Source: Candidatus Moraniibacteriota bacterium (GTDB taxonomy: Bacteria > Patescibacteriota > Minisyncoccia > Moranbacterales > UBA1568). From it: 64,000 bases of DNA. The number at the start of each line of letters is the position of its first letter. The first letter of the stretch is position 1. The position numbers and the translations under genes are program-made. The stretch is from assembly GCA_018061645.1 (NCBI GenBank), contig JAGOTT010000001.1:65090-129089 (forward strand). Direction: 5' to 3'. Below are positions 2,938 through 50,760 of this stretch, piece after piece. Below the pieces are notes generated by a model. That model was not told the DNA's origin. It ran no database searches and saw nothing but the letters and a program-made list of their open reading frames with translations.

Positions 2938-2960
2938 TCATAAAGTCTATAAAGTTTATC
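2938..2960. repeat. Left inverted repeat flanking four-helix-bundle gene A (cataaagtctataaagtttatc)
   Basis: reverse complement ctttatagacttt matches ctttacggacttt at 3342-3358 (11/13). Confidence 0.5.
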
Positions 2961-2980
2961 AAGCCCATCAAGAGGAAACT

Positions 2981-3328
2981 TTAAGCAAGTCTTTTTATAA
3001 ACCCGGAGAGCATTCTTGATATTTCAACGGATTGCCCATACAGAGTATCAAACTTTCTTTGATTTATGTATCCGAGGTCGAGTGCTATATACAGCATGGA
3101 TCGGACTTCGCCGCTGGAGCCTTTTGCTATGAAAAGAAAATTTTTCAATTCCTTATCACTCTTACGTTCGAATCCTTCGGCGATATTGTTCATGACGGAG
3201 ACAGCTGCTCTCTGAATCTGATCGCGGAATCCGTAGTCTTTCATCTGCGAAAAAATACCGTATATGTCCGAGACGAGAATTCTTGACTTCTTCCATGCCT
3301 CGATGTCTTCGAACGTTTGTATACTCAT
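2981..3328 (-). CDS. Four-helix-bundle protein (23S rRNA intervening-sequence protein family, TIGR02436/PF05635-like)
   Basis: 115 aa; motifs QIQRAAVSVMNNIAEGF and FLFIAKGSSGEVRSMLYIA; paralog of ORFs at 39898, 41672, 50352. Confidence 0.9.
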   Translation of the reverse strand: MSIQTFEDIEAWKKSRILVSDIYGIFSQMKDYGFRDQIQRAAVSVMNNIAEGFERKSDKELKNFLFIAKGSSGEVRSMLYIALDLGYINQRKFDTLYGQSVEISRMLSGFIKRLA

Positions 3329-3341
3329 GGGATTTTCTTTC

Positions 3342-3358
3342 GACTTTACGGACTTTTT
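3342..3358. repeat. Right inverted repeat flanking four-helix-bundle gene A
   Basis: gactttacggacttttt; partner of 2938-2960; overlaps last codons of GT-C gene 3346..5154. Confidence 0.5.
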
Positions 3359-5154
3359 AACTCAAAGAGGACGGCATCCTGTTCCATGTGCCTTATTGAA
3401 GGGAAGCCGATGTTTCGAAGCGGAAGCGTTTCCAACTGTTCGGTCGAAAACGTGAACGCGGAGACGAATTCGAACGAGACGGGCATTCCTTCCCATTTCT
3501 CGAAAGATCCGAGCGGTGTCAGCAGATAGATATGTTCGTATCCGTCCTTTGCCATTTTCGCATAATCTTCCGGATTGAAGAAATAGGCGGCATTTTTTCC
3601 ATGGAGGAACCGGAGCGGACCGGAGGGAATGGAGAAATGATCCCCGGTCGTATCGCGATCCATGAGGAGCAGGTCGTGAGCGCCCACGAGCGGTGCTATT
3701 TCGGCGGTCGTCCCGAGGAATCCGCGGTTGTCCGCGAAGGGGAACACCCGGACCGATGTCGGAATCGCGAGTAGGAGGACGAAGAGACAGATGCCGATCG
3801 CGGTTACGTTTCCGATCCGAGCGCGTTTTTCGGTGAGTACAAAGAGCGCGAACGTCCCCGAAAGAAGAAGTGCGGGAAACGCGAACGGAAGGAAGCGGCG
3901 GAGCATCCACGGATGGTCGTGCGTGATGTTCGGATCGACGAAATAGAGGAAGGTCGGGAGCGCGAGGAGCGCCGGGATGAGCGGCACGAAGCGTCTTTTC
4001 CGGAGCAGGAAAACGATGCCGGCGAATCCGAGAACGAAAATCGGCAGGAGTCCGTAGGTAGCGAAGAGTTTCCAGAGCGCGAACGAGGTTCCGGCGCTAT
4101 CCCCGAGTGCGGCCATGTCGGTTCCGGAGAGCGAGGAGAGGTTTTTGAGGAGAGCCTTCGCCATTACGGTGTAGAAGGGGAGATTCGCGGAGAAGTTGAT
4201 GAGGAGCACCGTAAGAGCGAAGAGAAGAGGAGCGGTTCGGAAGAACGTTTTCCGTGGCGCGACGAATTCGCGTCCCTGTCGCGAGAGGAAGAGGATGCCG
4301 AGCGCGATGCCGAGCGCCCAGATACCTTCGATGCGGGTGACGGCGAGCAAAAGCGCCGAGAAATACGCGCCGAGAAAAAAACTCGCGCGGTTCTCGCGGA
4401 GAAAAAGGATGAGGTTGAGCGAGAGGAAGAGGAAGAGGAAGAGCGCGGCGTTTTCGGTGAGCGTGAATTTTACGAACCAGGAAGGGAGGAATGATGCGGC
4501 GAAAATCGCCGTGGCGCCTATCGCGTACCGTTCGCCCGTGAGGGTGCGGACGAGGATGAATATCGAGAGGATGGAGAGCGAAAGGAGGATGCCGTTGCCG
4601 ACACGAAAGCCGTCTATTCCGAAAAACGCCGTGAACGCGGCGAGCCATGACGTGTAGCCGAGCGGAAACTGGGTCAGAAGCGACCCGTCTTCGGCATAGA
4701 AGAATCCCGGGAAGTGTAACGCCTGTCCCTTGCCATAGATGGCGGAAAACGTTCCGCTTGCCGGATGCGAGAACGAAAGTGATCCGGTTCGGACAAGCTC
4801 GAAGGCCGCCTCGCTGATGGACCCCTGATCGCGCCCGGAGAAGACCGTCGGTTCGGCGAAATACATGAGAGAAACGGAATACAGGATAGCGAGAACGAGA
4901 ACGATCTTCGCGGACAGGTTTTCTTTCGTGATCCATTTTCGTGCGGACATGAACGCACCCACACCCATGATGACGGCGAACAGCATGAGCAGGCGCGGAG
5001 AAAAGAACCCCGCGACCGCGAGGAAATAGGTGGACCACCAGAAAAGGAGGAAGCCGAACGCGAAAAACGAGAATCGCGCGGCCTGCATGAGTCGTTGGTC
5101 GTCGTGTTCCATGTAGGGAGTATAGCGGAGACGGCAGCTTTTTTCAATTTGCAA
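3346..5154 (-). CDS. Polytopic GT-C fold membrane glycosyltransferase (PMT/ArnT, GT39-like)
   Basis: 602 aa, >10 TM helices, large C-terminal soluble domain; family resemblance to paralogs at 44475-52308. Confidence 0.55.
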   Translation of the reverse strand: MQIEKSCRLRYTPYMEHDDQRLMQAARFSFFAFGFLLFWWSTYFLAVAGFFSPRLLMLFAVIMGVGAFMSARKWITKENLSAKIVLVLAILYSVSLMYFAEPTVFSGRDQGSISEAAFELVRTGSLSFSHPASGTFSAIYGKGQALHFPGFFYAEDGSLLTQFPLGYTSWLAAFTAFFGIDGFRVGNGILLSLSILSIFILVRTLTGERYAIGATAIFAASFLPSWFVKFTLTENAALFLFLFLSLNLILFLRENRASFFLGAYFSALLLAVTRIEGIWALGIALGILFLSRQGREFVAPRKTFFRTAPLLFALTVLLINFSANLPFYTVMAKALLKNLSSLSGTDMAALGDSAGTSFALWKLFATYGLLPIFVLGFAGIVFLLRKRRFVPLIPALLALPTFLYFVDPNITHDHPWMLRRFLPFAFPALLLSGTFALFVLTEKRARIGNVTAIGICLFVLLLAIPTSVRVFPFADNRGFLGTTAEIAPLVGAHDLLLMDRDTTGDHFSIPSGPLRFLHGKNAAYFFNPEDYAKMAKDGYEHIYLLTPLGSFEKWEGMPVSFEFVSAFTFSTEQLETLPLRNIGFPSIRHMEQDAVLFELKSP

Positions 5155-5177
5155 AAGGGGGTTCCGAAAGGTAGAAT
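5149..5177 (+). promoter_or_regulatory. Candidate sigma70-like promoter (TTGCAA-17-TAGAAT) for Clp-like ATPase gene, possibly leaderless
   Basis: ttgcaa at 5149-5154, tagaat at 5172-5177, 17-nt spacer, ATG at 5184. Confidence 0.3.
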
Positions 5178-5183
5178 GGAAGC

Positions 5184-7649: not shown

Positions 7650-7683
7650 AATGAAATTTGAAAAATCAAAAATAAGAATTATC

Positions 7684-7716
7684 GTGTCCGCCAAGGACGG
7701 ACTCCTTTATTTTTCA
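7684..7716 (+). terminator. Putative rho-independent terminator after Clp-like gene
   Basis: hairpin gtgtccgccaaggacggac followed by T-rich tract. Confidence 0.4.
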
Positions 7717-7718
7717 TT

Positions 7719-10197: not shown

Positions 10198-10208
10198 TGC
10201 GGTGAAGG

Positions 10209-11654: not shown

Positions 11655-11677
11655 ACAATAAGCGTGAACGAAAGGAT

Positions 11678-24858: not shown

Positions 24859-24890
24859 CCTGTTAGCTGTTCCTTGTTGATTGTTTCCTG
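24859..24890. repeat. Family-2 repeat copy (cctgttagctgttccttgttgattgtttcctg)
   Basis: shares ttgttgattgtt / ctgtt...cctg core with 40272-40314 and 55820-55895. Confidence 0.5.
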
Positions 24891-24891
24891 A

Positions 24892-32315: not shown

Positions 32316-34197
32316 AATACTCCTGGAACCAGAGTTCGAGGGTTATGAGCGCCCAGATATGATAACCGAAATCGACGTTTGTTGTGCAATGTCTATCAAG
32401 GAGTGACTTAACGGATTCTTTCTTGAAAATACCTCTATTTATCGCCTTATCTGAGAGAAGGGTTTGATAGGCATAGTCTTTCAGTTCACCACGGAACCAC
32501 CCGTGTATCGGAATCCCGAATCCCATCTTCGGACGAAACATGACCTCGTCGGGGATGATGCCGCGAAGCGCTTCTTTCAGGATATATTTCTTATTGTTTC
32601 TTCCTTTGAGCTTGAGATGAAAGGGGATTTTCGCCGTAAGCTCGAGAAGTTCATGATCGAGAAATGGGGAGCGCCCTTCGAGGGCGACCGCCATGGTGTC
32701 GATATCGACTTTGACCATGAGATCGTCGGGGAGATAGGTCGCGAAGTCGGCATAGACGGCCTGCTCCGCCCTGCTTCGGCTTCCGGATTCGGCGAATCGA
32801 TCGGCGACGATGCGATAGGAATCCGAATGCTTCATTTTCTCACGGAAGTCATCCGTATAGAGTTCGTCCTTCATCTCGTTCGTGAAATAGCAGATATAGT
32901 CCACATATCGGTAGTCGTAGGGCTTCGAGAGGCTCTCGGCGAAACGATGCGCACGGTCGAGGAATGTCGTTTTGAATGCTTTCGCGGCAAGCGCCGTCGC
33001 GGGGAGCGCGAGCGTCTTATGGAGGAGCATCAGCTTGTCGTAGGCGAGGGCGAACTTGTGTATGCTGTAGCGTCCATATCCGGCGAAGTTCTCGTCACCG
33101 CCGTCACCGTTCAGAGCCACCGTGACGTGCTCGCGGGTGAGCTTGGAGACATAGTAGGTCGGAAGGGCGCTCGAGTCGGCATAGGGCTCCTCGTACTGTT
33201 TGACGAGCATGGGGAGGAGGTCGATCGCGTGCGGTTCGACGATGAATTCGGTATGCTCGGTCTTGAACCAGTCCGCGATCATCCGGGCGTAGGGGAGCTC
33301 ATTGTACTTCTCTTCCTTGAAGCCGATGGAAAAGGTCTTGATGGGTTTGTCGGAGTGCCGCGCCATCATGGCGACGACCGCACTCGAATCCACGCCTCCG
33401 GACAGGAAGGCGCCGATCGGCACGTCGGAAATCATGCGGAGGCGGGTCGATTCGTCGAGCTTGTCGATGATCCGCTTCTTCCATTCGCTTTCCGGGAAAT
33501 CGAGTTTTTCGGAGTAATCGAGTTTCCAGTAGCGCTTGTTTTCGAGCGTTCCGGTCGCAAGGTCGAGTGAGAGGAAATGCGCCGGCTCGAGCTTCTTGAT
33601 GTCCTTGAATCCGGTGAGCGGGGCGGGGACATACTGAAGAGTCAGATAGTGATGGATCGCCTCGTAGTCAGGCTCCCGGACATATTCCGGCTGGGTGAGG
33701 ATGGCTTTCAGTTCGGATGCGAACATGAAGATTTTTCCGTCGAAGAAATACTTGAACGGTTTTTTGCCGACACGGTCCCGGGCGGCGAAGATGGTTCGTT
33801 CCTGCTCGTCGTAGATTGCAAAGGCGAACATCCCACGAAGGTGGTCGAGACACTTTTCACGATATTTGTCGAAAAGCGCGAGGATGACCTCGGTGTCGGA
33901 GTGGGAGGCGAAAGTGTAGCCCTCCTTTTCAAGCATTGCGCGCTTCTCCTGAAAGTTGTAGACCTCGCCGTTGAAGACGATTTCGTAGCGGTCGAGATAC
34001 CGCATCGGCTGGTGCCCGAGCGGTGAGAGGTCGATGATGGAAAGGCGTCGGTGGCCGAGACCGACCTTGTGATCGGGCGAGACGTATACGCCGCCGTCAT
34101 CCGGACCGCGATGCCTGATGGCCTCGTTCATCGTCTCGACTTCTTCGGTCGAGATTTCCTTGTTTGTGAGGGAGATTTTTCCGGCAATACCGCACAT
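32308..34197 (-). CDS. asnB: Asparagine synthase (glutamine-hydrolysing), AsnB/WbpS-like amidotransferase
   Basis: start set at MCGIAG (Cys2 nucleophile); SGGVDSS PP-loop motif; 629 aa. Confidence 0.85.
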   Translation of the reverse strand: MCGIAGKISLTNKEISTEEVETMNEAIRHRGPDDGGVYVSPDHKVGLGHRRLSIIDLSPLGHQPMRYLDRYEIVFNGEVYNFQEKRAMLEKEGYTFASHSDTEVILALFDKYREKCLDHLRGMFAFAIYDEQERTIFAARDRVGKKPFKYFFDGKIFMFASELKAILTQPEYVREPDYEAIHHYLTLQYVPAPLTGFKDIKKLEPAHFLSLDLATGTLENKRYWKLDYSEKLDFPESEWKKRIIDKLDESTRLRMISDVPIGAFLSGGVDSSAVVAMMARHSDKPIKTFSIGFKEEKYNELPYARMIADWFKTEHTEFIVEPHAIDLLPMLVKQYEEPYADSSALPTYYVSKLTREHVTVALNGDGGDENFAGYGRYSIHKFALAYDKLMLLHKTLALPATALAAKAFKTTFLDRAHRFAESLSKPYDYRYVDYICYFTNEMKDELYTDDFREKMKHSDSYRIVADRFAESGSRSRAEQAVYADFATYLPDDLMVKVDIDTMAVALEGRSPFLDHELLELTAKIPFHLKLKGRNNKKYILKEALRGIIPDEVMFRPKMGFGIPIHGWFRGELKDYAYQTLLSDKAINRGIFKKESVKSLLDRHCTTNVDFGYHIWALITLELWFQEYFD

Positions 34198-34202
34198 ATC
34201 AG

Positions 34203-34231
34203 TGAACAGCGAACAATTAACAGTCAACAGG
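34203..34231. repeat. Family-2 repeat copy (aacaattaacagtcaacag)
   Basis: 19-mer identical to reverse complement of 40281-40299. Confidence 0.65.
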
Positions 34232-34238
34232 AGCACTG

Positions 34239-34264
34239 GATTCCCGCCTTCGCGGGAATGACAG
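34239..34264. repeat. Family-1 repeat half-element, self-complementary hairpin
   Basis: ggattcccgccttcgcgggaatgaca. Confidence 0.6.
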
Positions 34265-38887: not shown

Positions 38888-39832
38888 ATGGAAAACGGGA
38901 AACCGTATGTATCGGTGGTGGTGCCGGTATATAACGAGGAAGGGAACGTGGTCGAGTTGCACCGGCGGATCAGGGAGGCGTGCGAGAAAATCGGGCGTTT
39001 GTTCGAAATCATCCTCGTCGATGACGGATCGACGGATAAGACGGTTGAGCTGTGTCGCGGATTATCGCCTTTGACGCTTATCGGATTTCGTAGGAACTTT
39101 GGGCAGACAGCCGCCTTTGACGCGGGGATCAAGAGAGCGACTGGGGATATCGTCATCACGATGGATGGCGACCTGCAGAACGATCCGGCGGACATCCCGC
39201 TTCTTCTTGCAGAGATGGACAAGGGGTTCGATATCGTTTCCGGATGGCGCCACAAGCGCAAGGACACGCTCATGAAACGGTTCTTCTCGCGCGGGGCGAA
39301 CCTGCTTCGCAAGGGACTGGTCAAGGACGGGATCCATGATTCCGGATGCAGCCTCAAGGCATATCGGCGCGAATGCTTCGACGGGGTGGATCTGTTCGGG
39401 GAGATGCATCGGTTCATGCCGGCGCTCCTTCAGCTCGACGGTTTCCGCGTGTCCGAGGTCAAGGTCTCGCACCACCCGCGTATCCACGGCGTGACGAAAT
39501 ACAACTGGAAACGAGCGATCAAGGGATTTGTCGATATGCTCTTCATCTGGTTCTGGCGCAAGTACTCGCACCGCGCGATCCACCTCTTCGGTGGGACGGG
39601 GCTCGTGCTCGGACTTGTCGGTATCGGGCTTCTCGGATGGATGTTCGTGGAAAAAGTCTTCTTCGGCGCGTCACTTTCGGAACGCATCTGGCCTTTGGTC
39701 GGAACGCTCCTTGTCCTTGTCGGAGTGCAGCTCTTCATCTTCGGCATCCTCGTTGATGTTTCGGTGAAGACGTACTACAGCCAGCGTGGAAGAATGAATT
39801 ACAGCGTAAAACAGATAACAAATAACAGTTAA
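38888..39832 (+). CDS. GT2 polyprenol-phosphate glycosyltransferase with C-terminal TM helices (GtrB/ArnC-like)
   Basis: VSVVVPVYNEE, LVDDGSTDKT, ITMDGDLQNDP, two C-terminal TM helices; last codons (KQITNNS) lie in family-2 repeat. Confidence 0.85.
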   Translation: MENGKPYVSVVVPVYNEEGNVVELHRRIREACEKIGRLFEIILVDDGSTDKTVELCRGLSPLTLIGFRRNFGQTAAFDAGIKRATGDIVITMDGDLQNDPADIPLLLAEMDKGFDIVSGWRHKRKDTLMKRFFSRGANLLRKGLVKDGIHDSGCSLKAYRRECFDGVDLFGEMHRFMPALLQLDGFRVSEVKVSHHPRIHGVTKYNWKRAIKGFVDMLFIWFWRKYSHRAIHLFGGTGLVLGLVGIGLLGWMFVEKVFFGASLSERIWPLVGTLLVLVGVQLFIFGILVDVSVKTYYSQRGRMNYSVKQITNNS

Positions 39833-39879
39833 CAGTCAACGGGGAAGCAAAAACAACAAAAACAGTTAACGGAAAACGA
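39809..39879. repeat. Family-2 repeat / left IR of four-helix-bundle gene B
   Basis: aaacagataacaaataacagttaacagtcaac ... aacagttaacggaaaacg; IR partner at 40272-40314. Confidence 0.65.
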
Positions 39880-39897
39880 AGAAAAGAAAAAATAGGT

Positions 39898-40260
39898 ATG
39901 GAAAAGGATATCCTGAAGGAGAAGATGGATGGATTAGCGAAGGGTGTCTATGATGTGACAAAGAAATTTCCAAAGGATGAGATTTATGGAATAACATCGC
40001 AGTTGAGAAGGGCATCCTTATCGGTTATCCTGAATTATGTCGAAGGATTTGCTCGAACGGGTGACAAGGAATTGAAAAACTTTCTTCAGATATCGTACGG
40101 GTCGCTGAAAGAAACGAAATACCTTATATTTTTCTGTACCCGAGAAAAGTATATGACAAAGAAGGAGTATGGAGCTCTTATGGCGTTGACAGATGAGATA
40201 GGGGCGATGCTTTGGAAAAGAATCCAGAGCGTGAAAGGAAGAATCGCTGCTGGTAAGTGA
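39898..40260 (+). CDS. Four-helix-bundle protein (23S rRNA IVS protein family)
   Basis: 120 aa; QLRRASLSVILNYVEGF, FLQISYGSLKETKYL. Confidence 0.9.
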   Translation: MEKDILKEKMDGLAKGVYDVTKKFPKDEIYGITSQLRRASLSVILNYVEGFARTGDKELKNFLQISYGSLKETKYLIFFCTREKYMTKKEYGALMALTDEIGAMLWKRIQSVKGRIAAGK

Positions 40261-40271
40261 GTGTTCGCTAT

Positions 40272-40314
40272 AAACTGTTTTCTGTTGACTGTTAATTGTT
40301 GATTGTTAACTGTT
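40272..40314. repeat. Family-2 repeat / right IR of four-helix-bundle gene B
   Basis: aaactgttttctgttgactgttaattgttgattgttaactgtt immediately abutting ugd ATG. Confidence 0.65.
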
Positions 40315-41625
40315 ATGAAGTTGTCCTTCATCGGGACGGGGTACGTGGGGCTGGTGTCGGGGACGTGCATGGCGGAAATCGGTCACGAGGTGATCTGTGC
40401 GGATATCGACAAGAAGAAAATCGACAAGCTCAAGCGGGGAGGAATCCCGATCTATGAGTTCGGTCTCGAGGAGCTGATCAAGGAGAACGTGCGCCAGGAA
40501 CGGCTGTCCTTCACGACGGACGTGGGTAGGGCGATCCGCGAGGCGGATGTCATTTTCTCCGCGGTTGGAACGCCGCCCCATCCCAAGACCGGCGAGGCGG
40601 ATCTCCGGTACGTGTTCGCAGCGGCGGAAACCTTCGGAAAGAACCTGAACGGGTACAAGATCTTCGTGAACAAATCCACGGTCCCGGTCGGGACGGCGGA
40701 ACGGGTGCACGCCGCGATCGCGAAAGCAAGTGATGGAAAATTCGAGTTCGATGTCGTCTCGAATCCGGAATTCCTCCGCGAGGGCGCGGCGGTCAAGGAT
40801 TTCCTCAATCCGGACCGGGTCGTCGTCGGTGCGGACAGCGAGCGTGCCTGGGAGATAATGGAAAAGGTCTATCGCCCGATCGCCCGTTCGGGGCGTCCGG
40901 TGGTGCTGACCGACGTGAAAAGCGCGGAAATCATCAAATACGCGTCGAACGCATTTCTTGCGACCAAGATATCTTTCATAAACGAGATCGCCCGGTTCAT
41001 CGACAAGGCCGGCGGCAACGTGAAGGAGGTGTCACGCGGGATGGGATTCGACAGCCGGATCGGCTCGCGATTCCTCTATGCCGGTATCGGGTATGGCGGG
41101 TCGTGCTTCCCGAAGGACGTGAAGGCGCTCATCCACACGGGCAAGGAGCATGGCGTGGACTTCACCATTCTCGAAGCGGTGGAGGCGACCAATGAGAGAC
41201 AGAAGCTCCTGCCGGTCGCGCATCTGCGGAAATCGCTCAAGACGCTCAAAGGGAAGCGGATCGCGCTTTGGGGTCTTTCGTTCAAACCGCGGACCGACGA
41301 TGCGCGCGAAGCGCCGGCACTTTCGATCATCGAGGCGCTCACCAAGGCAGGGGCGTCGATTCAGGCTTTCGATCCGGTCGCGACCGAGAACGCCAAAGGA
41401 TTCATCGGCAGGAACGCGAAAGTGAAGTATGTGACGAAACAATACGATGCGCTCGACAAGGCGGATGCGCTCGTCATCGTCACCGAGTGGGATGAGTTCC
41501 GTACCGCGGATTACAAGGAGATCGGCAAGCGCATGAAAGGGCGGGTGATCGTCGATGGACGCAATATCCTCGAGCGCGAGGAAGCCGAAGCCGCGGGATT
41601 CGTTTACTATGGGGTTGGAGTCTGA
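40315..41625 (+). CDS. ugd: UDP-glucose 6-dehydrogenase
   Basis: MKLSFIGTGYVGLVSG, GGSCFPKDV catalytic Cys motif, 436 aa. Confidence 0.9.
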   Translation: MKLSFIGTGYVGLVSGTCMAEIGHEVICADIDKKKIDKLKRGGIPIYEFGLEELIKENVRQERLSFTTDVGRAIREADVIFSAVGTPPHPKTGEADLRYVFAAAETFGKNLNGYKIFVNKSTVPVGTAERVHAAIAKASDGKFEFDVVSNPEFLREGAAVKDFLNPDRVVVGADSERAWEIMEKVYRPIARSGRPVVLTDVKSAEIIKYASNAFLATKISFINEIARFIDKAGGNVKEVSRGMGFDSRIGSRFLYAGIGYGGSCFPKDVKALIHTGKEHGVDFTILEAVEATNERQKLLPVAHLRKSLKTLKGKRIALWGLSFKPRTDDAREAPALSIIEALTKAGASIQAFDPVATENAKGFIGRNAKVKYVTKQYDALDKADALVIVTEWDEFRTADYKEIGKRMKGRVIVDGRNILEREEAEAAGFVYYGVGV

Positions 41626-41642
41626 TAGACAATAGACCAAGA

Positions 41643-41655
41643 ACCAAAATCCAAT
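41643..41655. repeat. Left inverted repeat flanking four-helix-bundle gene C (accaaaatccaat)
   Basis: perfect 13-bp reverse complement at 42083-42095. Confidence 0.65.
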
Positions 41656-41671
41656 CACCAAGGAAATTCCG

Positions 41672-42043
41672 ATGACCAATGACCAATCCCCGAAAAAGAA
41701 ATTCGATCTTGAGGATCGGACGCTTGATTTTGCGAAGCGAGTCGTACGGATGTGTAAGGAGCTACCGACGAACACCGTAAACGATAATCTTGTAGATCAA
41801 GTGATCCGCTCCGCTGGTTCGGTCGGAGCGAATTATCGTGAAGCGAATGATGCGCTTGGTACGAAAGACTTTCTGATGCGTCTGAAGATTTCTCGAAAAG
41901 AGGTGAAAGAGACACATTTCTGGCTGGAGCTTATCATCGAAGCAAATCCGGATCTGAAGAAAAGAATCGAAAGCCTGTTTCAAGAATCGCTCGAGTTGAA
42001 AAAGATTCTTTCTGCTATAATCACGAAACTCCAGAATAAATGA
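41672..42043 (+). CDS. Four-helix-bundle protein (23S rRNA IVS protein family)
   Basis: 123 aa; VIRSAGSVGANYREAN, FLMRLKISRKEVKETHFWL; close paralog of 50352..50723. Confidence 0.9.
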   Translation: MTNDQSPKKKFDLEDRTLDFAKRVVRMCKELPTNTVNDNLVDQVIRSAGSVGANYREANDALGTKDFLMRLKISRKEVKETHFWLELIIEANPDLKKRIESLFQESLELKKILSAIITKLQNK

Positions 42044-42082
42044 TTCAGTGATTGTTTCTTGATGATTGATCATTATCTGGTT

Positions 42083-42095
42083 ATTGGATTTTGGT
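42083..42095. repeat. Right inverted repeat flanking four-helix-bundle gene C (attggattttggt)
   Basis: reverse complement of 41643-41655. Confidence 0.65.
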
Positions 42096-42106
42096 AATTG
42101 GTGATT

Positions 42107-43429
42107 ATGAAAGTGTTATTTCTCAATTATGAGTATCCTCCGCTCGGTGGAGGTGCGGCGAACGCGACGCGGTATATCCTGCGGGAGTTTTCGCGCATGC
42201 CGGGTGTCGAGGCACATCTCGTGACGAGCGGGATGGGGAAGGAGTATGAGAAGGAACATATCGGCGGATCCGTGTGGGTGCATCGGCTGCCGATTGGCAA
42301 GGATCCGGGAAAGATCCACTCGCAGTCGGTGCGGGATCTGATTGTCTACAGCGCGAAGGCGTGGTGGTTTTCTTCGTGGATCATCCGTACGGCGAAACGC
42401 GAGGGAAATCCCTTCGACCGGACGATTGCCTTTTTCGGGATTCCCTGCGGGGCGCTCGCTCTTTGGTTCAAGTGGCGGTTTGGTATCCCATATGTCGTGT
42501 CGCTCCGCGGGTCGGATGTCCCCGGATACAGCGAGAAGTATGACCGGCTCTATCTTTTCCTCGCGCCGTTCGTCCGGCTCGTGTGGAAGAAGGCGCTCGC
42601 GGTCGTTCCGAACAGTCGGGGGCTCGCGGAACTTGCCGGAAAGACCGCTCCGCGACAGGCATTCGAAATTATTCCGAACGGTGTGGACACGGAGGAATTC
42701 CGTCCCGATCCGGCGCGCGAACGTGACGGATATTTCCGCATACTGGCCGTGTCCCGGCTTACGCCGCGGAAGGGGATTCGATTCCTCATCCGGGCGATGT
42801 CGATACTTTCTCCGTCTGTCATTGCGAGCGAAGCGCGGCAATCCAGTGAAAAGGGAAAAGGACTGGATCGCCACGCCTCTGGCGAAGACGTCGGGGCTCG
42901 CGATGACAGATATTCGAAACTGGAACTCTGGATCGCGGGTGACGGGGAGGAGAAAGCGGAACTTGAAGTGCTCGCGAAGGAATGCGGCGTCTCCGACAAG
43001 GTGAAGTTCTTCGGGGCGGTACCGCATGAGCATCTCGGCCGATACTACGGACTTGCGGACGTCTTCTGTCTGCCGTCGCAGAACGAGGGCATGAGCAACA
43101 CCGTGCTCGAGGCGCTCGCGGCGGGGCTCCCGATCGTCGCGACGGTGACCGGCGGGACGGAGGAATTGATCCGTGACGGGGAGAACGGTCTCTTCGTCGT
43201 ACAACGGTCGCCGGAGGATCTCGCCGAGAAGCTCGGAAAACTCTTGGCCGACGAGTCACTCCGAGTGCGTATGGGAGAGGCGGGCCGGAAGCGTGCCGAG
43301 GAGATGAATTGGGAAAGCGTTGCAGGCCAATTTCTTGAGCTGTGCTCAAGAAAAAAAGCACAAATCTTAGAACACAAAGATCCAAACAAAACACAGACCA
43401 CAAAACTGAAAACTGACCGATCGGAATGA
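42107..43429 (+). CDS. Glycosyltransferase family 4 with in-frame palindromic-repeat insertion in interdomain linker
   Basis: MKVLFLNYEYPPLGGGAANA; C-terminal EGMSNTVLEALAAGLPIV; inserted peptide SVIASEARQSSEKGKGLDRHASGEDVGARDDR from repeat 42817-42908. Confidence 0.85.
   Translation: MKVLFLNYEYPPLGGGAANATRYILREFSRMPGVEAHLVTSGMGKEYEKEHIGGSVWVHRLPIGKDPGKIHSQSVRDLIVYSAKAWWFSSWIIRTAKREGNPFDRTIAFFGIPCGALALWFKWRFGIPYVVSLRGSDVPGYSEKYDRLYLFLAPFVRLVWKKALAVVPNSRGLAELAGKTAPRQAFEIIPNGVDTEEFRPDPARERDGYFRILAVSRLTPRKGIRFLIRAMSILSPSVIASEARQSSEKGKGLDRHASGEDVGARDDRYSKLELWIAGDGEEKAELEVLAKECGVSDKVKFFGAVPHEHLGRYYGLADVFCLPSQNEGMSNTVLEALAAGLPIVATVTGGTEELIRDGENGLFVVQRSPEDLAEKLGKLLADESLRVRMGEAGRKRAEEMNWESVAGQFLELCSRKKAQILEHKDPNKTQTTKLKTDRSE
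42817..42908. repeat. Family-1 palindromic repeat element, in-frame inside GT4 gene
   Basis: tgtcattgcgagcgaagcgcggcaatccagt ... ctggatcgcc...ctcgcgatgaca. Confidence 0.8.
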
Positions 43430-44474: not shown

Positions 44475-46118
44475 TCAATATGTCAGGCATTTCTCCGGGA
44501 ATGGCATCCGCGGTTCCGAGCGCGAAGCCGGATCGAATACGGCTCCGAGCGTTCCGAACGGTATCAGATCATCAGTCGACGACGGTTTGCGCTCATCGAT
44601 AAAAAGGCGATTGAATCCGTCCGGAGCATCCCGCATTTCGCCTCTGAAGTAGCATCCTTGGTAGCCGTATTCGGCCGAAAGCACGTAATACATCGATTTG
44701 ACGTTGTGGCTTTCCCCGGAGATAAGAATCGGAATATCCTTGTGCGGGAATCGATGGAGCGTTTCATCGGCGATGGAACGCAGTTGTCCAAGGGTAACCT
44801 TGGCTTCGGTTCCGAATCGCAAGTCACGACCGCTTTCTTCCGCTGATGTCTGTGACATATCCAATTCATGCAGGTATTTCGTTGTCGCTTGAAAATTGAT
44901 CAGAATCAAGGCGATTCCAGCGGCTACTGTGGCGTTCTTGAGCCAGATGCTCCTGACAGCGCCGACGATACGATCGGCAGCGATGCCAAGGAAGATGAAT
45001 AACGGAGGAATGATCCCGAGATAGAAACGTGTCTGGATCTCGTATGCCACGAATACGGTGGCAAAAAAGAATCCGGCGAACCATAGTCCGACGAAAGCGA
45101 GCGCCGTTTTGCGTTTCATATCAGAAGCCGATCTCCATCTCTGGTATGCCGATACTGTGATAAATCCGAATATCATCATCGCAGGGATGGAGTATGGCAA
45201 TAAAGCCCGGCATTTTTTGTCGCAGGTCATCGAGAAGCCTTCCGTTTTGATCACATCGGTATCCTGCTGTCCGGTAACGGTGAGCCAGGTGACGCGTGAT
45301 GCCTGCTGGTAAGATCGAAAAATCTTCTCGTGCCAGCCATGCCCAACGCCATGATACGTATCGTCCGTAAGCGCCTTTTTGAATGTCTCCGTATTTTCTC
45401 CGCCGGTTTTCCATTCGTGTACAAAAATCGGGAATTGCAGTGCCGTAACTATGGCGATACCGAAGAATATCTCCCGAAGACGCAAGGATCTTGAGAGGAC
45501 AAGAAACATCGTCAGTCCGATCAGGAGTCCTGCGATCGCTACGAGGTGCAACTGTGCGATTATGCCGACGCATGTGGCTGCTCCGACAAGAAGCCATCGA
45601 CGCGTAGCGCCTTTTCTCTCGATCGCTTCGAGAAAAAACAAGGCGAAGAGCGTCGTGAAAAACGGGAGGCCGTTCGGATTCCATGTGAAACGGGAAAATG
45701 TCACCAGAAACAGTGAAACGCTTGCCAGCGCGGTGAACCACAGGGACAGCGGAAGGGGAATGAACCGTTGAAGCAACAAAAAAAGAAGGGGAATCGTAAG
45801 AACACCGAAAACAAGGTCGGGATACGCGAAACTTTCCGCCGTGCCGCCGAAAATCTTTCCTGAAAAATACTGGAAATAGTAGGAAATCGGTCCGAGGTGA
45901 AATCCCGTGCTGCCTGCTTCGGGTCCGAGAAGCGGCAGCGACGTGATTCCATGCGCCATCGCCTGATTCATGATGATAGCATCGCGAGCCTGGTCCGATT
46001 TGAATACGAGCCAATCGCTATGGTGAACCGATCGCAGCCCGATGGCAACGACGATGATGATCGCTGACAATGCGAGCAGGAGCTTTTTCCGTAGGTCTGG
46101 AACCTTATCAAGGCACAT
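44475..46118 (-). CDS. GT-C fold membrane glycosyltransferase, GT39/ArnT/PMT-like
   Basis: start set at MCLDKVPDLRKKLLLAL; loop-1 motif FKSDQARDA (DE-type); >10 TM helices. Confidence 0.6.
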   Translation of the reverse strand: MCLDKVPDLRKKLLLALSAIIIVVAIGLRSVHHSDWLVFKSDQARDAIIMNQAMAHGITSLPLLGPEAGSTGFHLGPISYYFQYFSGKIFGGTAESFAYPDLVFGVLTIPLLFLLLQRFIPLPLSLWFTALASVSLFLVTFSRFTWNPNGLPFFTTLFALFFLEAIERKGATRRWLLVGAATCVGIIAQLHLVAIAGLLIGLTMFLVLSRSLRLREIFFGIAIVTALQFPIFVHEWKTGGENTETFKKALTDDTYHGVGHGWHEKIFRSYQQASRVTWLTVTGQQDTDVIKTEGFSMTCDKKCRALLPYSIPAMMIFGFITVSAYQRWRSASDMKRKTALAFVGLWFAGFFFATVFVAYEIQTRFYLGIIPPLFIFLGIAADRIVGAVRSIWLKNATVAAGIALILINFQATTKYLHELDMSQTSAEESGRDLRFGTEAKVTLGQLRSIADETLHRFPHKDIPILISGESHNVKSMYYVLSAEYGYQGCYFRGEMRDAPDGFNRLFIDERKPSSTDDLIPFGTLGAVFDPASRSEPRMPFPEKCLTY

Positions 46119-46153
46119 ATTTTTTCGAAGCCGTTTTTTCACCCGAAAAGTCT

Positions 46154-48397: not shown

Positions 48398-48486
48398 GGA
48401 TATGGTTGCGTTCTCCGGTGGGAAGCGGTATACTTCCGAAAGAAGAAAGCTTTTAATAAGGCATTATTCTCTTTCACTCTATCACA

Positions 48487-50268
48487 ATGTCCGAAGAAAG
48501 GAAACCATTTTCCAGCCGTTTTTCGAGGCCGATTCTCATCCTGATCGCCATTCTCGCGTTTGGCGGGTTCCTTCGGCTGTATCATTTTTCCGACTGGCTC
48601 CACTTCGAACTCGACCAGGCGCGCGATGCGCGGGTCATCGACGAGGCACTTTCCGGGGGCCCTGGCGAGCTGACGCTTCTCGGCATGAAGGCCGGGGGAA
48701 CGTCGCTTCGGCTCGGTCCCGGGTTCTACTACCTTGAGTATCTTTCCGGGCTCGTTTTCGGTGCGACCCCGCAGGGGATAGCGATGATCATCCCTATCCT
48801 TTCGGTCGCCTCGATCGGGGTGTTTTACCTGTTCGCGCGGCGGTTTTTCGGGGTGTCGGTCTCGCTCGCGCTCGCGCTCCTTTTTTCCGTTTCCGAATAC
48901 CTGGTCATGTACGGGCGGTTCGCGTGGAATCCGAACCCGCTGCCGTTCTTCTCGCTCCTTGGATTCTATGCGTTGCTTCGGTCCGTTTCTCCGGATGAGC
49001 GGCGACCGGGACGGTGGTTTGTCCTATCCGCATTTTCCATCGGTCTCGCGACGCATCTCCATTTCCTCGCCTTCCTCTCGCTTCCGGTGGTCGCGGCGAT
49101 TTTTCTCCTCGTCCGTCGGCCGAGATTTTCCTCCAAGGCGTGGGCGGCGGCGTTCGCGGCGTTTATCGTGTTCTATGTTCCGGTCGTGCTCAACGAGATC
49201 GAGACCGGCGGTGCGAATTCCAGGGCGTTCCTTTCGGCAATCACCGAAAAATCATCGAAGACGACCCGGACGGCTCCGGAGAAACTTATCCGGAACATTA
49301 CCGAGCACGGACTGGGATATCTTACGATCCTGACGGGGATCGAGGACGGGGGATTCGCGGATGTCGACCTGCGTCGCGAGGGAGTGTTCCGTATCGAATG
49401 CGATGCGAGGTGCCAGGACGGGAAAGTCGTCGGATCCGTATCCATGGCCGCATTCGCGCTTTCCCTGATTTCTGCTTTTTATCTGTGGTTTCGAATCCGA
49501 GATCGGAGGCAGTCGGACGTACTGCTTTTGTCCGGGATATGGTTTCTGGTTGTCTTTTCCGTGCTTTTCCCGCTTGCGTACGGGTTCTCGCCGCGGTTCT
49601 TCCTTGCTGCCGCGCCGATACCGTTCCTCCTGCTTGGGTTCCTCTTGGAGGGCGCGCGCGCGGTGTTTCCGGGTCGGAAGTCTGTGATGTGGGTCGGAGC
49701 GGCGATACTCGCCATCTTTGTTGCATTGAACGTCTTCGGAGTCGCGGAACGGTTCCGCCAATCGTCGCTCGCGTTGACGGAGGCGGTAGACACTCCGGCG
49801 GATCGTATCCTCAAGGAAAAGATCCGTGTGCCGCTCGAGCAGCAGATGAAGATTGTTGATTATCTCAAGACGCGGTCGGATGAGCGGGGGTGGCCGGTGT
49901 ATATGCACAGTGAACCGGAACATCGGCGGGCGCTCAAGTATCTTCTCGAGCGACGCGGTGTGGAGAACGCCGGATTCGGATTGACGGGTATTTATGAAGA
50001 GGGGATCTATGTGCTCATTCTCCGATCGAAGTCGGATCTCTATGACGGAATGAAGAAGTATCTCGAGAAATATGATGTCGTCGAGAAACATTCCTTCGGG
50101 ACGCTCACGATGATAGAATTCCGACCGAAGGAAACGTCCATCGAGGCGAAGCGACAGGTCTTCGTTCCGCAAGGGAAGGTGCAGGATAACCCGACCGCGC
50201 TCCCGCGCTACACCTGGCGCGAATGGTGGGAGCGGAAGAATGATCCGGGGAATGATGAAGAAGAATAA
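48487..50268 (+). CDS. GT-C fold membrane glycosyltransferase, GT39/ArnT/PMT-like
   Basis: 593 aa; HFELDQARDARVIDEAL loop-1; YGRFAWNPNPLPFF; divergent from 46154..48397. Confidence 0.65.
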   Translation: MSEERKPFSSRFSRPILILIAILAFGGFLRLYHFSDWLHFELDQARDARVIDEALSGGPGELTLLGMKAGGTSLRLGPGFYYLEYLSGLVFGATPQGIAMIIPILSVASIGVFYLFARRFFGVSVSLALALLFSVSEYLVMYGRFAWNPNPLPFFSLLGFYALLRSVSPDERRPGRWFVLSAFSIGLATHLHFLAFLSLPVVAAIFLLVRRPRFSSKAWAAAFAAFIVFYVPVVLNEIETGGANSRAFLSAITEKSSKTTRTAPEKLIRNITEHGLGYLTILTGIEDGGFADVDLRREGVFRIECDARCQDGKVVGSVSMAAFALSLISAFYLWFRIRDRRQSDVLLLSGIWFLVVFSVLFPLAYGFSPRFFLAAAPIPFLLLGFLLEGARAVFPGRKSVMWVGAAILAIFVALNVFGVAERFRQSSLALTEAVDTPADRILKEKIRVPLEQQMKIVDYLKTRSDERGWPVYMHSEPEHRRALKYLLERRGVENAGFGLTGIYEEGIYVLILRSKSDLYDGMKKYLEKYDVVEKHSFGTLTMIEFRPKETSIEAKRQVFVPQGKVQDNPTALPRYTWREWWERKNDPGNDEEE

Positions 50269-50303
50269 GCAGAGGATACAAGAGACAAGAAATGCAACGT
50301 TGG

Positions 50304-50327
50304 AAGAAACAAGGTACAAGAAACAAG
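50304..50327. repeat. Left inverted repeat flanking four-helix-bundle gene D (aagaaacaaggtacaagaaacaag)
   Basis: 22/23 match to reverse complement of 50737-50760. Confidence 0.7.
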
Positions 50328-50351
50328 ATACAAAAAATCCGAAATACGAAA

Positions 50352-50723
50352 ATGACCGAAGTGAAACAAAAAGAGAAGAGATTTGACCTGGAGGAAAGGA
50401 CGTTGGAGTATTCGAAAAGAGTTCTCCGGTTGTGCAAAAGTCTCCCAAAGAATGGTATCAATCGGGAGATGGCTGATCAGCTGTTTCGTTCCGCAAGCTC
50501 CGTCGGGGCGAATTATCGGGAAGCGAACGACGCCCTTGGTAAGAAGGATTTTGTCATGAGGATAAAGATATCCAGAAAAGAAGCGAAGGAGGCCGAGTAT
50601 TGGTTGAAGCTGGTTGCGGAAGGTAATCCTGAAATGAAAGAAAAAATGAGTGGGCTTATCGATGAAACAAAGGAGCTGCGGATGATATTTTCTTCCATAA
50701 TAAGCAAGGTTTCAGTGAATTGA
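50352..50723 (+). CDS. Four-helix-bundle protein (23S rRNA IVS protein family)
   Basis: start at MTEVKQKEKRFDLEERTLEYSKRVL aligning with paralog 41672; LFRSASSVGANYREAN. Confidence 0.9.
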   Translation: MTEVKQKEKRFDLEERTLEYSKRVLRLCKSLPKNGINREMADQLFRSASSVGANYREANDALGKKDFVMRIKISRKEAKEAEYWLKLVAEGNPEMKEKMSGLIDETKELRMIFSSIISKVSVN

Positions 50724-50736
50724 TTTTTCGTGATTT

Positions 50737-50760
50737 TTGTTTCTTGTAACTTGTTTCTTG
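50737..50760. repeat. Right inverted repeat flanking four-helix-bundle gene D (ttgtttcttgtaacttgtttcttg)
   Basis: partner of 50304-50327. Confidence 0.7.

Follow-up and report, generated by a model that had tools for sequence, protein, structure and literature searches.

Four-helix-bundle genes between complementary heptamer arrays in the operons of a Moranbacteria genome resemble the intervening sequences of 23S rRNA

Introduction

Can the intervening sequences (IVSs) known from rRNA also reside in mRNA? IVSs of rRNA are located in helix 9, 25 or 45 of 23S rRNA, or in 16S rRNA. A preliminary description of the window, that is, the whole 64,000-nucleotide stretch of Moranbacteria DNA analyzed here, noted four genes (c1 to c4) of the family classically found inside 23S rRNA IVSs, and proposed that these operon-embedded cassettes are the same kind of element, either mobile or acting as RNase III processing sites. 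In this report, we describe the cassettes and their relatives, and consider it somewhat better than an even chance that c1 to c4 are IVS-type elements residing in mRNA, a reading that includes a predicted looped-out ORF and RNase III processing by homology. The build of the 23S rRNA IVS, which is cut by RNase III in some 23S rRNAs, recurs at operon junctions between protein genes, and the cassettes tie an abundant protein family (PF05635/TIGR02436) to the still unexplained 7-base repeats that lie between bacterial genes.

Results and Discussion

The four genes and their protein family

All four genes encode four-helix-bundle proteins of the PF05635/TIGR02436 family, as had been claimed, and the scores were far above the curated HMM cut-offs (whole-protein scores of 117.9, 100.4, 63.1 and 60.8 bits against 33.8 for PF05635, and 111, 99, 87 and 83 against 24 for TIGR02436). 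By sequence match, c2 is related to the solved structure 2GSC (E = 2e-11) and c3 to 2RLD (E = 2e-18), and both PDB entries contain five chains. The c3 protein is 100% identical to a protein of a Candidatus Moranbacteria MAG, and a protein identical to c1 is found at the same site in the close relatives L173-L178. The start of c4 was set by alignment with c3, and an in-frame ATG is present upstream, at 50292. No fifth paralogue was found among the six-frame ORFs of the window using an HMM built from c1 to c4. The GC content of the cassette ORFs was 0.41-0.44 and their GC3 0.47-0.53, compared with 0.55-0.59 and 0.67-0.78 in the neighboring genes; the values of c1 were 0.41 and 0.47, respectively, against 0.67-0.71 in its neighbors.

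The homologous Avd proteins raise the idea that c1 to c4 are accessory proteins of diversity-generating retroelements (DGR), and c2 gave matches to bAvd (PF22296, 38.8 vs 40 bits) and NF033474 (34.1 vs 80). However, none of the scores reached the curated cut-offs, no reverse transcriptase was found near c1-c3 (called genes, L081-L083 and L173-L178) or among the neighbors of c4, and no template/variable repeat pair was seen, so that this identity is hardly credible.

All four cassettes lie outside rRNA, as the window contains neither an Rfam family nor a tRNA and each cassette is located between protein-coding ORFs. The description of each gene as lying between glycosylation genes applies to c2, c3 and c4 (GT2, UDP-glucose dehydrogenase, GT4 and PMT_2) but not to c1, both neighbors of which are without a Pfam match. 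The glycosylation neighborhood is incidental and local only, because the neighbors of 82 related cassettes span 121 different Pfam families.

Table 1. Positions of the cassette genes, their arms and related arrays in the window
Feature	Position	Strand	Description
c1 gene	2981-3328	-	115-aa four-helix-bundle protein, PF05635/TIGR02436
c1 left (upstream) arm	3329..3375	-	best pairing segment 3343-3368; includes AAAGTCCGTAAAGT
c1 right (downstream) arm	2919..2980	-	best pairing segment 2928-2955; 9-nt period ACTTTATAG ACTTTATGA ACTTAATGG
c1 repeat first described	2942-2954 (- strand) and 3344-3356		ctttatagacttt / ctttacggacttt; exact cores
c2 gene	39898-40260	+	120-aa four-helix-bundle protein
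c2 left arm	39801..39897	+	heptamer array AACAGAT AACAAAT AACAGTT AACAGTC, core 39810-39840
c2 right arm	40261..40314	+	CTGTTTT CTGTTGA CTGTTAA TTGTTGA TTGTTAA CTGTT
c2 repeat first described	39824-39840 / 40284-40300		aacagttaacagtcaac / gttgactgttaattgtt
c3 gene	41672-42043	+	123-aa four-helix-bundle protein
c3 left arm	41626..41671	+	GACAATA GACCAAG AACCAAA ATCCAAT CACCAAG; pairing segment 41636-41667
c3 right arm	42044..42106	+	pairing segment 42072-42102; adjoins GT4 gene ATG (42107)
c3 repeat first described	41643-41655 / 42083-42095		accaaaatccaat / attggattttggt; perfect cores
c4 gene	50352-50723	+	123-aa four-helix-bundle protein; 57% identity to c3
c4 left arm	50269..50351	+	GATACAA GAGACAA ... 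GAAACAA GGTACAA GAAACAA GATACAA; pairing segment 50304-50337
c4 right arm	50724..50772	+	pairing segment 50724-50760
c4 repeat first described	50304-50327		aagaaacaagg...; true right arm 50725-50760
Lone array of c2-right-arm type	34201..34232	-	CTGTTGA CTGTTAA TTGTTCG CTGTTCA CTGAT; no cassette
Lone motif of c1-left-arm type	52303..52325	+	TGTAAAGTCCGTAAAGT; right after stop codon of gene downstream of c4
CA-rich left-arm-like stretch	43345..43420	+	GT4 C-terminal tail, GT4/LPG-synthase junction; by eye

Structure of the arms

The cassettes are approximately 450-520 bp in size and consist of a left arm, the four-helix-bundle ORF and a right arm, in this order (Table 1). The arms are degenerate 7-nt tandem arrays, of which the upstream one is CA-rich and nearly G-free and the downstream one is its TG-rich reverse complement. 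The autocorrelation at lag 7 was 0.54-0.66 in the arms of c2, c3 and c4 (left and right, 0.57 and 0.66 in c2, and 0.58 and 0.62 in c4), and the right arm of c1 showed 0.57 at lag 9. For cassette arms, 0.49-0.51 at lag 7 and 0.46 at lag 14 were observed against a baseline of 0.30, and the array length showed no preferred number of units. The inverted repeat spans 31 nt with 87% complementarity in c2 and 34 nt with 82% in c4, and the stop codon of the GT2 gene upstream of c2 (39830-39832) is inside the left arm.

The repeats first described are present in the window, although their order differs from the gene order and that of the right arm of c4 contained a 1-nt error. Their complementarity holds, but they are private only in part, being degenerate heptamer arrays with a vocabulary common to related cassettes and with lone copies elsewhere in the window. 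The right repeat had also been said to abut the downstream start codon, which is the case for c2 (the arm ends at 40314 and the ATG of UDP-glucose dehydrogenase is at 40315) and c4 (the true arm ends at 50760 and the ATG is at 50761 or 50773), and for c3 within 5-10 nt, but the repeat of c1 is approximately 24 nt off.

Pairing and folding

The flank-pairing scores of c2 (68), c4 (52) and c3 (41) were each higher than the score of any of the 50 other window genes, and that of c1 (32) was marginal, being equalled by 2 of these 50 controls. When the cassettes were folded, as the preliminary description had suggested, a long-range stem closed the whole-cassette RNA in the MFE structures as well as in the centroid structures, with z-scores of -7.1 (c2), -3.0 (c3), -2.45 (c4) and -0.9 (c1), and the arms folded alone were nearly unstructured (-0.3 to -9 kcal/mol). 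The predicted stems are 13-45 bp in length, those of c1 and c3 being short and imperfect with a 13-bp core. Similar results were obtained with related cassettes: the mean flank score of 82 cassettes was 42.5 vs 23.4 in 146 control genes (Mann-Whitney p = 2e-22), and 76% of these 82 metagenomic relatives exceeded the 95th percentile of the controls.

The window contains 47 inverted repeats that are 13 nt or longer and have partners within 900 nt; therefore, the length of the arms alone is unremarkable, and it is their position, exactly in both spacers, that is significant. This number of repeats, together with the weak score and fold of c1, would agree with chance matches in low-complexity, AT-rich spacers around ordinary small operon genes. 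As a general account this is very improbable, considering the scores of c2, c3 and c4 above every control gene, the p value across the 82 cassettes, and the occurrence of the same build in other phyla and in a true rRNA IVS; it is refuted for c2, c3 and c4, and possible only for the weak stem of c1.

The arms of one cassette pair better with each other than with arms swapped among cassettes (42.5 vs 32.6, p = 9e-8), and the left and right arms carry the heptamer variants in mirrored order. Swapped arms still paired well above the controls, because the heptamer vocabulary is common to the clade. In seven c3-type copies, in which pairing was 94%, no compensatory change was found (16 of the 27 pairs were invariant, 5 changed on one side and 0 on both), and the covariation score was the same as that of shuffled sequences. 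Among the stem mismatches, G·U was not significantly more frequent than A·C (69 vs 64, p = 0.73). Neither the covariation nor the mismatches thus demonstrate that sense-strand RNA pairing is the selected property.

These two negative results and the clade-wide vocabulary are consistent with a different function, in which the arms are mainly arrays of binding sites, in opposite orientation, for the four-helix-bundle protein or a host factor on single-stranded RNA leaders or DNA, for example, in translation-initiation leaders or autoregulation. In that case, complementarity would arise as a by-product, without a part for RNase III in the mRNA context. We regard this as a minority possibility, of about one chance in four, since binding sites alone do not require the mirrored order of variants or the better pairing of own arms, and no unit number is preferred in the arrays.

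Relatives, relocation and selection

Cassettes of this build also occur in Nostoc, Calothrix, Geminocystis, Riemerella and Picosynechococcus plasmids. A 23S rRNA gene on a plasmid of Azospirillum lipoferum (L198; Rfam LSU match) carries a genuine IVS with a PF05635-type ORF and complementary heptamer arms (CAGAGGA CGGATGA CAGAGGA... / TCCGTCC TCTGTCT...), in which GC was 0.56 vs 0.57 in the rest of the gene. This IVS and the features of the Coxiella IVS described below support the proposal that the operon cassettes are of the same kind as ORF-carrying 23S rRNA IVSs. Inverted arms are missing from some other members, namely L189, in which direct arrays flank the gene on either side, L190, which has a downstream array only, and L187, which has none. 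Direct arrays would suit the binding-site alternative; the rRNA-located members, which have the same arms and in the stem of which RNase III cleavage has been shown experimentally (PMC4990558), argue against it.

Comparison of synteny among relatives with the same collinear operon located the c3-type cassette at the GT2/UGDH, UGDH/GT4 or GT4/LPG-synthase junction, with precise empty sites in relatives. In L183, the UGDH/GT4 junction holds only an ORF-less hairpin of c3-type arms (-36.9 kcal/mol, z = -4.5), which keeps a perfect stem of 19 bp and is again unfavorable to the binding-site alternative. The proposed mobility is therefore upheld in the sense of discrete, relocatable units, found at three junctions and with an ORF-less derivative, and a second case of relocation was found in Nostoc plasmids (L185 vs L194 and L196).

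Different junctions, precise empty sites and an ORF-less miniature, as well as GC lower than in the host genes and the lack of G·U bias in the stem mismatches, are also what is expected of non-autonomous, MITE-like DNA transposons with a passenger gene, whose transposase is encoded elsewhere and for which RNA structure is irrelevant. Comparison of the filled junction (window 41620-42110) with the empty one of L081 ('gtgTAGcgcATG') showed no visible target-site duplication; a short one could have decayed, because the copies are old (dS ~1.2). No transposase or integrase was found in the annotated neighborhoods of the relatives (L081-L083 and L173-L178), and within one genome the arms differ among all four cassettes and lack a common terminal motif. 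In addition, cassettes and host genes have the same dS, purifying selection on the protein is strong, and orientation with the operon in 87% of the cassettes (see below) is not predicted by DNA transposition alone. We therefore consider such transposons unlikely.

The selection on the protein was determined from dN/dS, which was 0.035 for c2 compared with L082 (dS 1.19) and 0.018 for c3, against 0.05-0.13 for the neighboring host genes at equal dS, indicating that c2 and c3 are under stronger purifying selection. Because the synonymous divergence of the cassettes is that of the host genes, there was no recent spread; the cassettes have co-diverged with the host (dS ~1.2). The arms are 80-97% identical in relatives in which 4-fold sites are 34-57% identical; for the left arm of c3, identity was 82-97% in six relatives, with 34-57% at 4-fold sites. 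Conservation of the arm sequence far beyond neutral sites is a further point for the binding-site alternative.

Operon context and lone arrays

In 58 of 67 cassettes (87%), the gene is co-oriented with both neighbors, and the median gaps are 55 and 76 nt. Promoter and terminator matches within the cassettes were not above chance. Having no recognizable promoter or terminator of its own, the cassette is probably transcribed within the operon RNA. No RNase III gene was found in the window by signature search.

Arrays without a cassette are also present (Table 1). The lone TG-rich array adjoins the ATG of the gene ending at 34197 on the minus strand, and most published TAACTGA arrays stop 1 nt short of a start codon (PMC4679880); both would fit binding sites in leaders. 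The CA-rich stretch at the GT4/LPG-synthase junction may be a cassette relic, and the same junction holds a c3-type cassette in L081-L084.

Proposed mechanism

Under the IVS-type reading that we favor, the paired arms would form the 13-45-bp stem in the operon RNA and the ORF would be looped out, a geometry equal to that of ORF-carrying 23S rRNA IVSs, stems of which are cut by RNase III. Judging from this homology, cleavage in the stem would be the most likely consequence, and RNase III processing of the cassette mRNAs is plausible. Such a cut would free the RNA of the cassette and part the cistrons on either side of it, and we propose that this is why both the hairpin loops of rRNA and the spacers of operons can accommodate the insertion. 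The missing covariation and G·U excess, the short stems of c1 and c3, the members lacking inverted arms and the lone arrays weigh against this reading. The protein, a homologue of Avd, has as its probable target the heptamer arms or the stem, both in its own cassette and in related ones. The unit would be old and mostly vertically inherited, relocating between junctions over evolutionary time, and could lose its ORF so that a heptamer hairpin is left.

Comparison with known systems

The IVS of Coxiella is 428 nt long, with a 28-bp terminal stem and GACAGAT heptamers upstream of the ORF; its GC is below that of the genome and RNase III cleaves in the stem (PMC4990558). ORF-carrying 23S IVSs (Coxiella burnetii, in helix 45 with S23p; Leptospira; L198) and the window cassettes are alike in having a PF05635 ORF of approximately 115-125 aa in the loop, a total length of approximately 0.45-0.5 kb and complementary terminal arms that give a long stem. 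Heptamer arms are found in both (GACAGAT in Coxiella, and AACAGAT/AACAGTT in c2 of the window), as are orientation with the host transcript and short ORF-less versions, and GC is below that of the host in Coxiella as well as in the window. The window cassettes differ in their location, which is in intercistronic spacers of protein-coding operons and not in the loop of an rRNA helix. Moreover, the Coxiella ORF is reported to be unexpressed and decaying, whereas purifying selection on the window ORFs is stronger than on the neighboring enzymes, and RNase III cleavage has been shown for rRNA copies only.

The cyanobacterial STRR and the TAACTGA direct repeats of Beggiatoaceae, Cyanobacteria and Bacteroidetes are likewise 7-nt tandem repeats confined to spacers (PMC4679880; PMC2670836). 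They share the strand-asymmetric composition, often end at a start codon and can form hairpins between co-transcribed genes, and the right arm of c2 (TGACTGT TAATTGT TGATTGT TAACTGT) is nearly a TAACTGA array. These accounts (PMC4679880; PMC2670836) drew no link to four-helix-bundle genes or rRNA IVSs. Unlike those repeats, the arrays of the window are complementary pairs that flank a four-helix-bundle gene and travel with it.

Binding of an RNA stem-loop has been described for the pentameric Avd (bioRxiv 10.1101/2023.10.23.563531). The Avd of DGRs (PDB 4DWL; PF22296) has a homologous four-helix-bundle fold and is pentameric, in line with the five chains of 2GSC and 2RLD. The stem-loop bound by Avd adjoins its own gene, whereas a partner RNA of the window proteins is only inferred, and the window genes, unlike Avd, are without reverse transcriptase or template/variable repeats and score below the Avd cut-offs.

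MITEs and integron gene cassettes are also small, promoter-less inverted-repeat units between genes that show presence/absence polymorphism and ORF-less miniatures. In contrast to these, the window cassettes have no visible target-site duplication, no common terminal motif, no single site of the attC type and no integrase or transposase in the annotated neighborhoods, and they have co-diverged with the host without recent spread. Finally, the intercistronic RNase III sites of phage T7 early RNA and of rRNA operon spacers are likewise stems in a spacer, and the window stems could similarly segment a polycistronic transcript. The T7 and rRNA-spacer stems, however, are local hairpins without cargo, whereas that of the window cassettes surrounds a protein gene, and the unit relocates as a whole.

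Four genes with complementary heptamer arms

Few small protein families without a known function are as common as PF05635/TIGR02436, which has many members in CPR bacteria, cyanobacteria and Bacteroidota; one query alone retrieved more than 8000 relatives. The four genes (c1 to c4) that a preliminary description had assigned to this four-helix-bundle (4HB) family are members of it, all scoring far above the curated cut-offs of both PF05635 and TIGR02436, and a search with a profile built from them found no fifth copy in the window. Identity is 57% between c3 and c4, 37% between c1 and c2, and about 28% across the two pairs. The c3 protein is identical to one in a Candidatus Moranbacteria metagenome-assembled genome (MAG), and the same holds for c1, which places the window in the CPR/Patescibacteria. 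An exact look-up returned no identical record for the UDP-glucose dehydrogenase (UGDH) of the window. The PDB relatives are 2RLD and 2GSC, with five chains in each entry.

Each gene and its complementary flanks (the left, upstream arm and the right, downstream arm) form a cassette embedded within an operon. The inverted repeats quoted in the preliminary description are all present, although one contained a 1-nt transcription slip and their listing order differed from the gene order. The long-range stem expected from them was obtained by folding, since the RNA of the whole cassette folds into a structure closed by it, in the MFE and centroid structures alike. We scored the pairing of the 100 nt upstream with the 100 nt downstream for every gene; c2, c3 and c4 exceeded all 50 other window genes, but c1 was equalled by two of them. 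Taken singly, the arms hardly fold on themselves, owing to a skewed composition: A 51%, C 19% and G 10% in the last 60 nt upstream, and T 48% and G 19% in the first 60 nt downstream.

The arms consist of degenerate tandem heptamers, such as AACAGAT AACAAAT AACAGTT AACAGTC in the left arm of c2. Autocorrelation was 0.49-0.51 at lag 7 and 0.46 at lag 14, against a baseline of 0.30; this periodicity is seen in the arms of c2, c3 and c4 individually, and the period of the c1 right arm is 9 nt. A match between heptamers and the subunits of a pentamer, one for each, was considered and rejected, as array lengths do not peak at five units. An Rfam search of the arms, and of the surroundings of 20 related loci whose non-coding gaps are long, gave no match, and therefore those related copies do not lie in rRNA.

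Features of the window and of the comparison loci (GT2, UGDH, GT4 and LPG synthase, LPGs, are operon genes; cassettes in brackets)
Locus	Position or arrangement	Feature	Pairing score
Window	2981-3328 (-)	c1	
Window	39898-40260 (+)	c2	
Window	41672-42043 (+)	c3	
Window	50352-50723 (+)	c4	
Window	34201-34232 (-)	cassette-less arm-like array, adjoins ATG of a class-II amidotransferase-like gene (MCGIAG...)	
Window	52303-52325	cassette-less arm-like array, repeat of the c1 left-arm motif	
Window	43345-43420	cassette-less arm-like array	
Window	1211-1235	cassette-less arm-like array	
Window	24860-24891	cassette-less arm-like array	
Window	55865-55895	cassette-less arm-like array	
Window	56918-56950	strict array GTATTGG GTATTTC GTATTTG GTATCTG GTATC	
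Window	57196-57239	spacerless perfect 44-nt palindrome AAAATGTATCATAATTCCACGG/CCGTGGAATTATGATACATTTT	
Window	~34243-34262 (-)	GC-rich hairpin ATTCCCGCGAAGGCGGGAAT	
L179	~2375-2400	counterpart hairpin GGATTCCCGCCTTCGCGGGAATG	
L069	4517-4895	frameshifted 4HB gene	
Window	GT2-[c2]-UGDH-[c3]-GT4-LPGs		
L081	GT2-[c2]-UGDH-GT4-[c3]-LPGs		
L082	as L081, with a methyltransferase gene between UGDH and GT4		
L085, L180, L183	GT2-[c3-type]-UGDH		
L182	GT2-UGDH-[c3-type]-GT4; GT2|UGDH junction empty		
L185		arms GGGAAAA	69
L186		arms AAGGTTY	55
L188	between cas10 and cmr3	arms GGAGATA	36
L191		arms TAGGGAG x8 / TCCCTAC x5	87
L192		arms irregular purine-rich / CTGTCAC	51
L193		arms GGGAACA / TGTTCCC	81
L195		arms TAGGGTG / CACCCTA	75
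L197		arms GGGAARA / TTTTCCC	68
L189	1276-1500, 1860-1960	direct arrays, (AAAAGCT)x15 upstream, (AAAAGCC)x9 downstream	

Generality of the cassettes

Complementary heptamer arms are specific to 4HB genes. A metagenome scan with c3 (80 loci) and exact-protein look-ups together yielded 82 non-redundant cassettes. Compared with 146 control genes, 76% of them had flank pairing beyond the 95th percentile (p = 2e-22). Co-orientation with both neighbours was found for 58 of 67 cassettes, the median gaps being 55 nt upstream and 76 nt downstream, and several loci hold two or three cassettes. Pairing between a cassette's own arms (42.5) was higher than between arms swapped among cassettes (32.6; p = 9e-8), and swapped arms still exceeded the controls, indicating a shared heptamer vocabulary combined with a mirrored order specific to each cassette. 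The vocabulary is clade-wide and includes GAWACAA, CCAATAA and ACAAATT. A functional link to glycosylation was rejected, because 124 neighbour proteins of the related cassettes fall into 121 Pfam families; the glycosylation context of the window is therefore incidental. A viral-contig scan with the four-protein profile gave no confirmed relatives.

A tblastn search of plasmids with c1 gave 25 records, cyanobacterial for the most part, from which 14 regions were taken. One of them (L198) is an rRNA intervening sequence (IVS), and clear complementary heptamer arms were found in 8 of the other 13. In two further regions (L194 and L196) the left arm is built of heptamers and its right partner is short and weak (scores 28 and 21), L190 is an exception with an array downstream only, and in L187 neither arm has a heptamer array. 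The Pseudanabaena region L189 is exceptional in its long direct arrays; a complementary array, (AGCTTTT)n, is found farther upstream, a layout unlike the inverted arms seen elsewhere.

Cassettes also occur within cas operons, at cas10|cmr3 in a Picosynechococcus PCC 7003 plasmid (L188) and at cas6|cas4 in both Pseudanabaena and Anabaena sp. 90 (L192). Eighteen 4HB genes inside cas loci were previously interpreted as possibly cas-associated (PMC3936711); these published 'cas-associated 23S_rRNA_IVP' genes are probably cassette insertions into cas operons.

Relocation, empty sites and an ORF-less derivative

In relatives, GT2, UGDH, GT4 and LPG synthase stand in the same collinear operon, but which junctions hold a cassette varies. 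Homology between cassette copies starts at the left arm and stops at the right arm, and the empty UGDH|GT4 site of L081 reads gtgTAGcgcATG. No target-site duplication was visible when filled and empty UGDH|GT4 junctions, the latter in L081, were compared; in copies this old a short one could have decayed. At the same junction in L183 and L184 there is an ORF-less hairpin of c3-type arms with a 19-bp perfect stem (-36.9 kcal/mol, z = -4.5). The c3-type cassettes at differing junctions, the empty sites and the ORF-less derivative mark the cassettes as discrete units that can relocate. Nostoc plasmids provide a second case of relocation: one and the same 288-nt gene of a syntenic operon is bordered by the cassette on one side or the other, depending on the plasmid. 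We considered an integron cassette with attC and rejected it, since a single downstream attC-like site, a cassette array and, among annotated neighbours, an integrase are all missing.

The otherwise near-identical L081 and L082 (2850-4821) have UGDH alleles 70% and 91% identical to that of the window, and L082 alone has the extra methyltransferase gene; these two differences form a recombination mosaic inside the glycan operon, and the breakpoints adjoin cassettes.

When synteny was followed through UGDH in L001-L080, a set with a single genome for each species, the closest relative was only 59% identical. A 4HB gene was present at only one of these 80 loci, where it is frameshifted, and therefore the gene has no general linkage to UGDH. 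That copy, in a Prevotellaceae MAG (L069), lies between two sugar-nucleotide epimerase-type genes with weak GGCAGTA/TACTGCC arms and looks like a decaying one.

Divergence and selection

The cassettes have co-diverged vertically with their host. Between the window and L082, dS was 1.17 for c3 and 1.19 for c2, within the range of the four host genes (1.06-1.28); the equal values argue for co-divergence with the genome and no recent transfer. Recent horizontal transfer, which might have accounted for the higher identity of cassette proteins (92-97%) compared with host proteins (70-91%), was rejected on the same ground. Protein and arms are both under strong constraint. The dN/dS ratio was 0.018 for c3 and 0.035 for c2, and all host genes were higher (GT2 0.049, UGDH 0.060, LPG synthase 0.119 and GT4 0.129). 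Among c3-type copies the arms have kept 80-97% identity, against 34-57% at 4-fold sites; for the c2 arms the values are 86% and 92%.

The GC content of the cassette ORFs is 0.41-0.44, against 0.55-0.60 in flanking genes and 0.53 in the window. In every lineage their GC3 is below that of adjacent host genes, by a mean of 0.16, the offset being negative in 94% of 69 cassettes. Cassette GC3 follows host GC3 at this constant offset, despite the co-divergence with the host.

Does the RNA stem matter?

The evidence that the RNA stem matters is mixed. In its favour are the heptamer order mirrored between the two arms, the hairpin kept after loss of the ORF, and the precedent of rRNA IVSs, which are cut by RNase III (PMC4990558). 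The main rival explanation holds that the heptamer arrays serve as binding sites for protein or as translation leaders, with complementarity secondary. Solo arm-like arrays at other junctions of the window, one of them adjoining a start codon, are compatible with it, and TAACTGA arrays likewise adjoin start codons (PMC4679880). Other findings, like the solo arrays, count against the stem or are neutral. Scans of the cassettes for promoters and terminators gave matches no higher than those in shuffled sequences. Covariation was considered as a proof of the stem, and none was found: in seven c3-type copies 94% of cells pair, no pair changed on both sides, and covariation equalled that of shuffles. 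Nor did mismatches in 70 stems show asymmetry between A·C (64) and G·U (69).

The solo arrays may have been left behind by lost cassettes, or they may be leader elements in their own right. There are four strict 7-nt arrays in the window; the one tabulated lies inside an ORF call (56294-57802), which also holds the palindrome. The GC-rich hairpin has its counterpart in a spacer of a related genome, and resembles a small element of the terminator or REP type common to these Moranbacteria.

A possible RNA-level module and its relation to rRNA intervening sequences

The cassette is probably co-transcribed with its operon, and its stem would then form in vivo; by homology with rRNA IVSs, RNase III would most likely cleave it. 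Because Avd, the DGR accessory protein, binds an RNA stem-loop (bioRxiv 10.1101/2023.10.23.563531), an Avd-like pentamer may bind the arms. Extended to CPR bacteria, Cyanobacteria, Bacteroidota and Proteobacteria, this gives a speculative scheme that we regard as rather unlikely in its entirety, in which 4HB genes and heptamer arms would be one RNA-level module. The Avd-like pentamer would bind the heptamers, as stem or as arrays, of the cassette that encodes it and of related ones and so control RNase III cutting, and thereby segmentation, stability or translation of the operon RNA (or rRNA). STRR/TAACTGA-type repeats and intercistronic heptamer hairpins would be cis-elements or ORF-less relics, and the 'cas-associated' genes insertions into cas operons.

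To our knowledge, neither rRNA intervening sequences nor the 7-nt intergenic repeats (STRR, TAACTGA) have found an explanation in about 30 years. That 4HB genes, their arms and rRNA IVSs share one architecture turns three separate puzzles into a single testable system. From it one would expect operons to contain sites processed by RNase III, and the Avd-like pentamer to bind RNA in settings other than retroelements. It also gives a simple account of 4HB genes in cas, nrd and glycan operons and a rule by which annotators can spot such cassettes. Since the same build occurs in culturable hosts (Nostoc, Picosynechococcus, Riemerella), experiments are feasible.

STRR hairpins between cistrons have already been described, with function unknown (PMC2670836). 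In the literature, searched mostly without subscription journals so that an earlier description is possible, we found no link between 4HB genes outside rRNA and flanking complementary heptamer arrays. A CPR study placed the 4HB family inside 16S and 23S insertions. In the Azospirillum lipoferum region (L198), a 468-nt IVS interrupts a 23S rRNA gene (Rfam LSU match); it has the arms CAGAGGA CGGATGA CAGAGGA CGGAGGA / TCCGTCC TCTGTCT TCTGTCA TCCGTCT and a stem of about 35 bp. The Coxiella IVS is 428 nt long, has a 28-bp stem and a GC content below that of the genome, and carries GACAGAT heptamers in tandem ahead of the S23p ORF; its RNase III site is the start of the first repeat (PMC4990558). 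These heptamer arms and features indicate that operon cassettes and true 23S IVSs share one architecture, in agreement with the proposal that they are the same kind of element. We conclude that 4HB gene, complementary heptamer arms and rRNA IVS belong to a single architecture, which is also found between ordinary operon genes.
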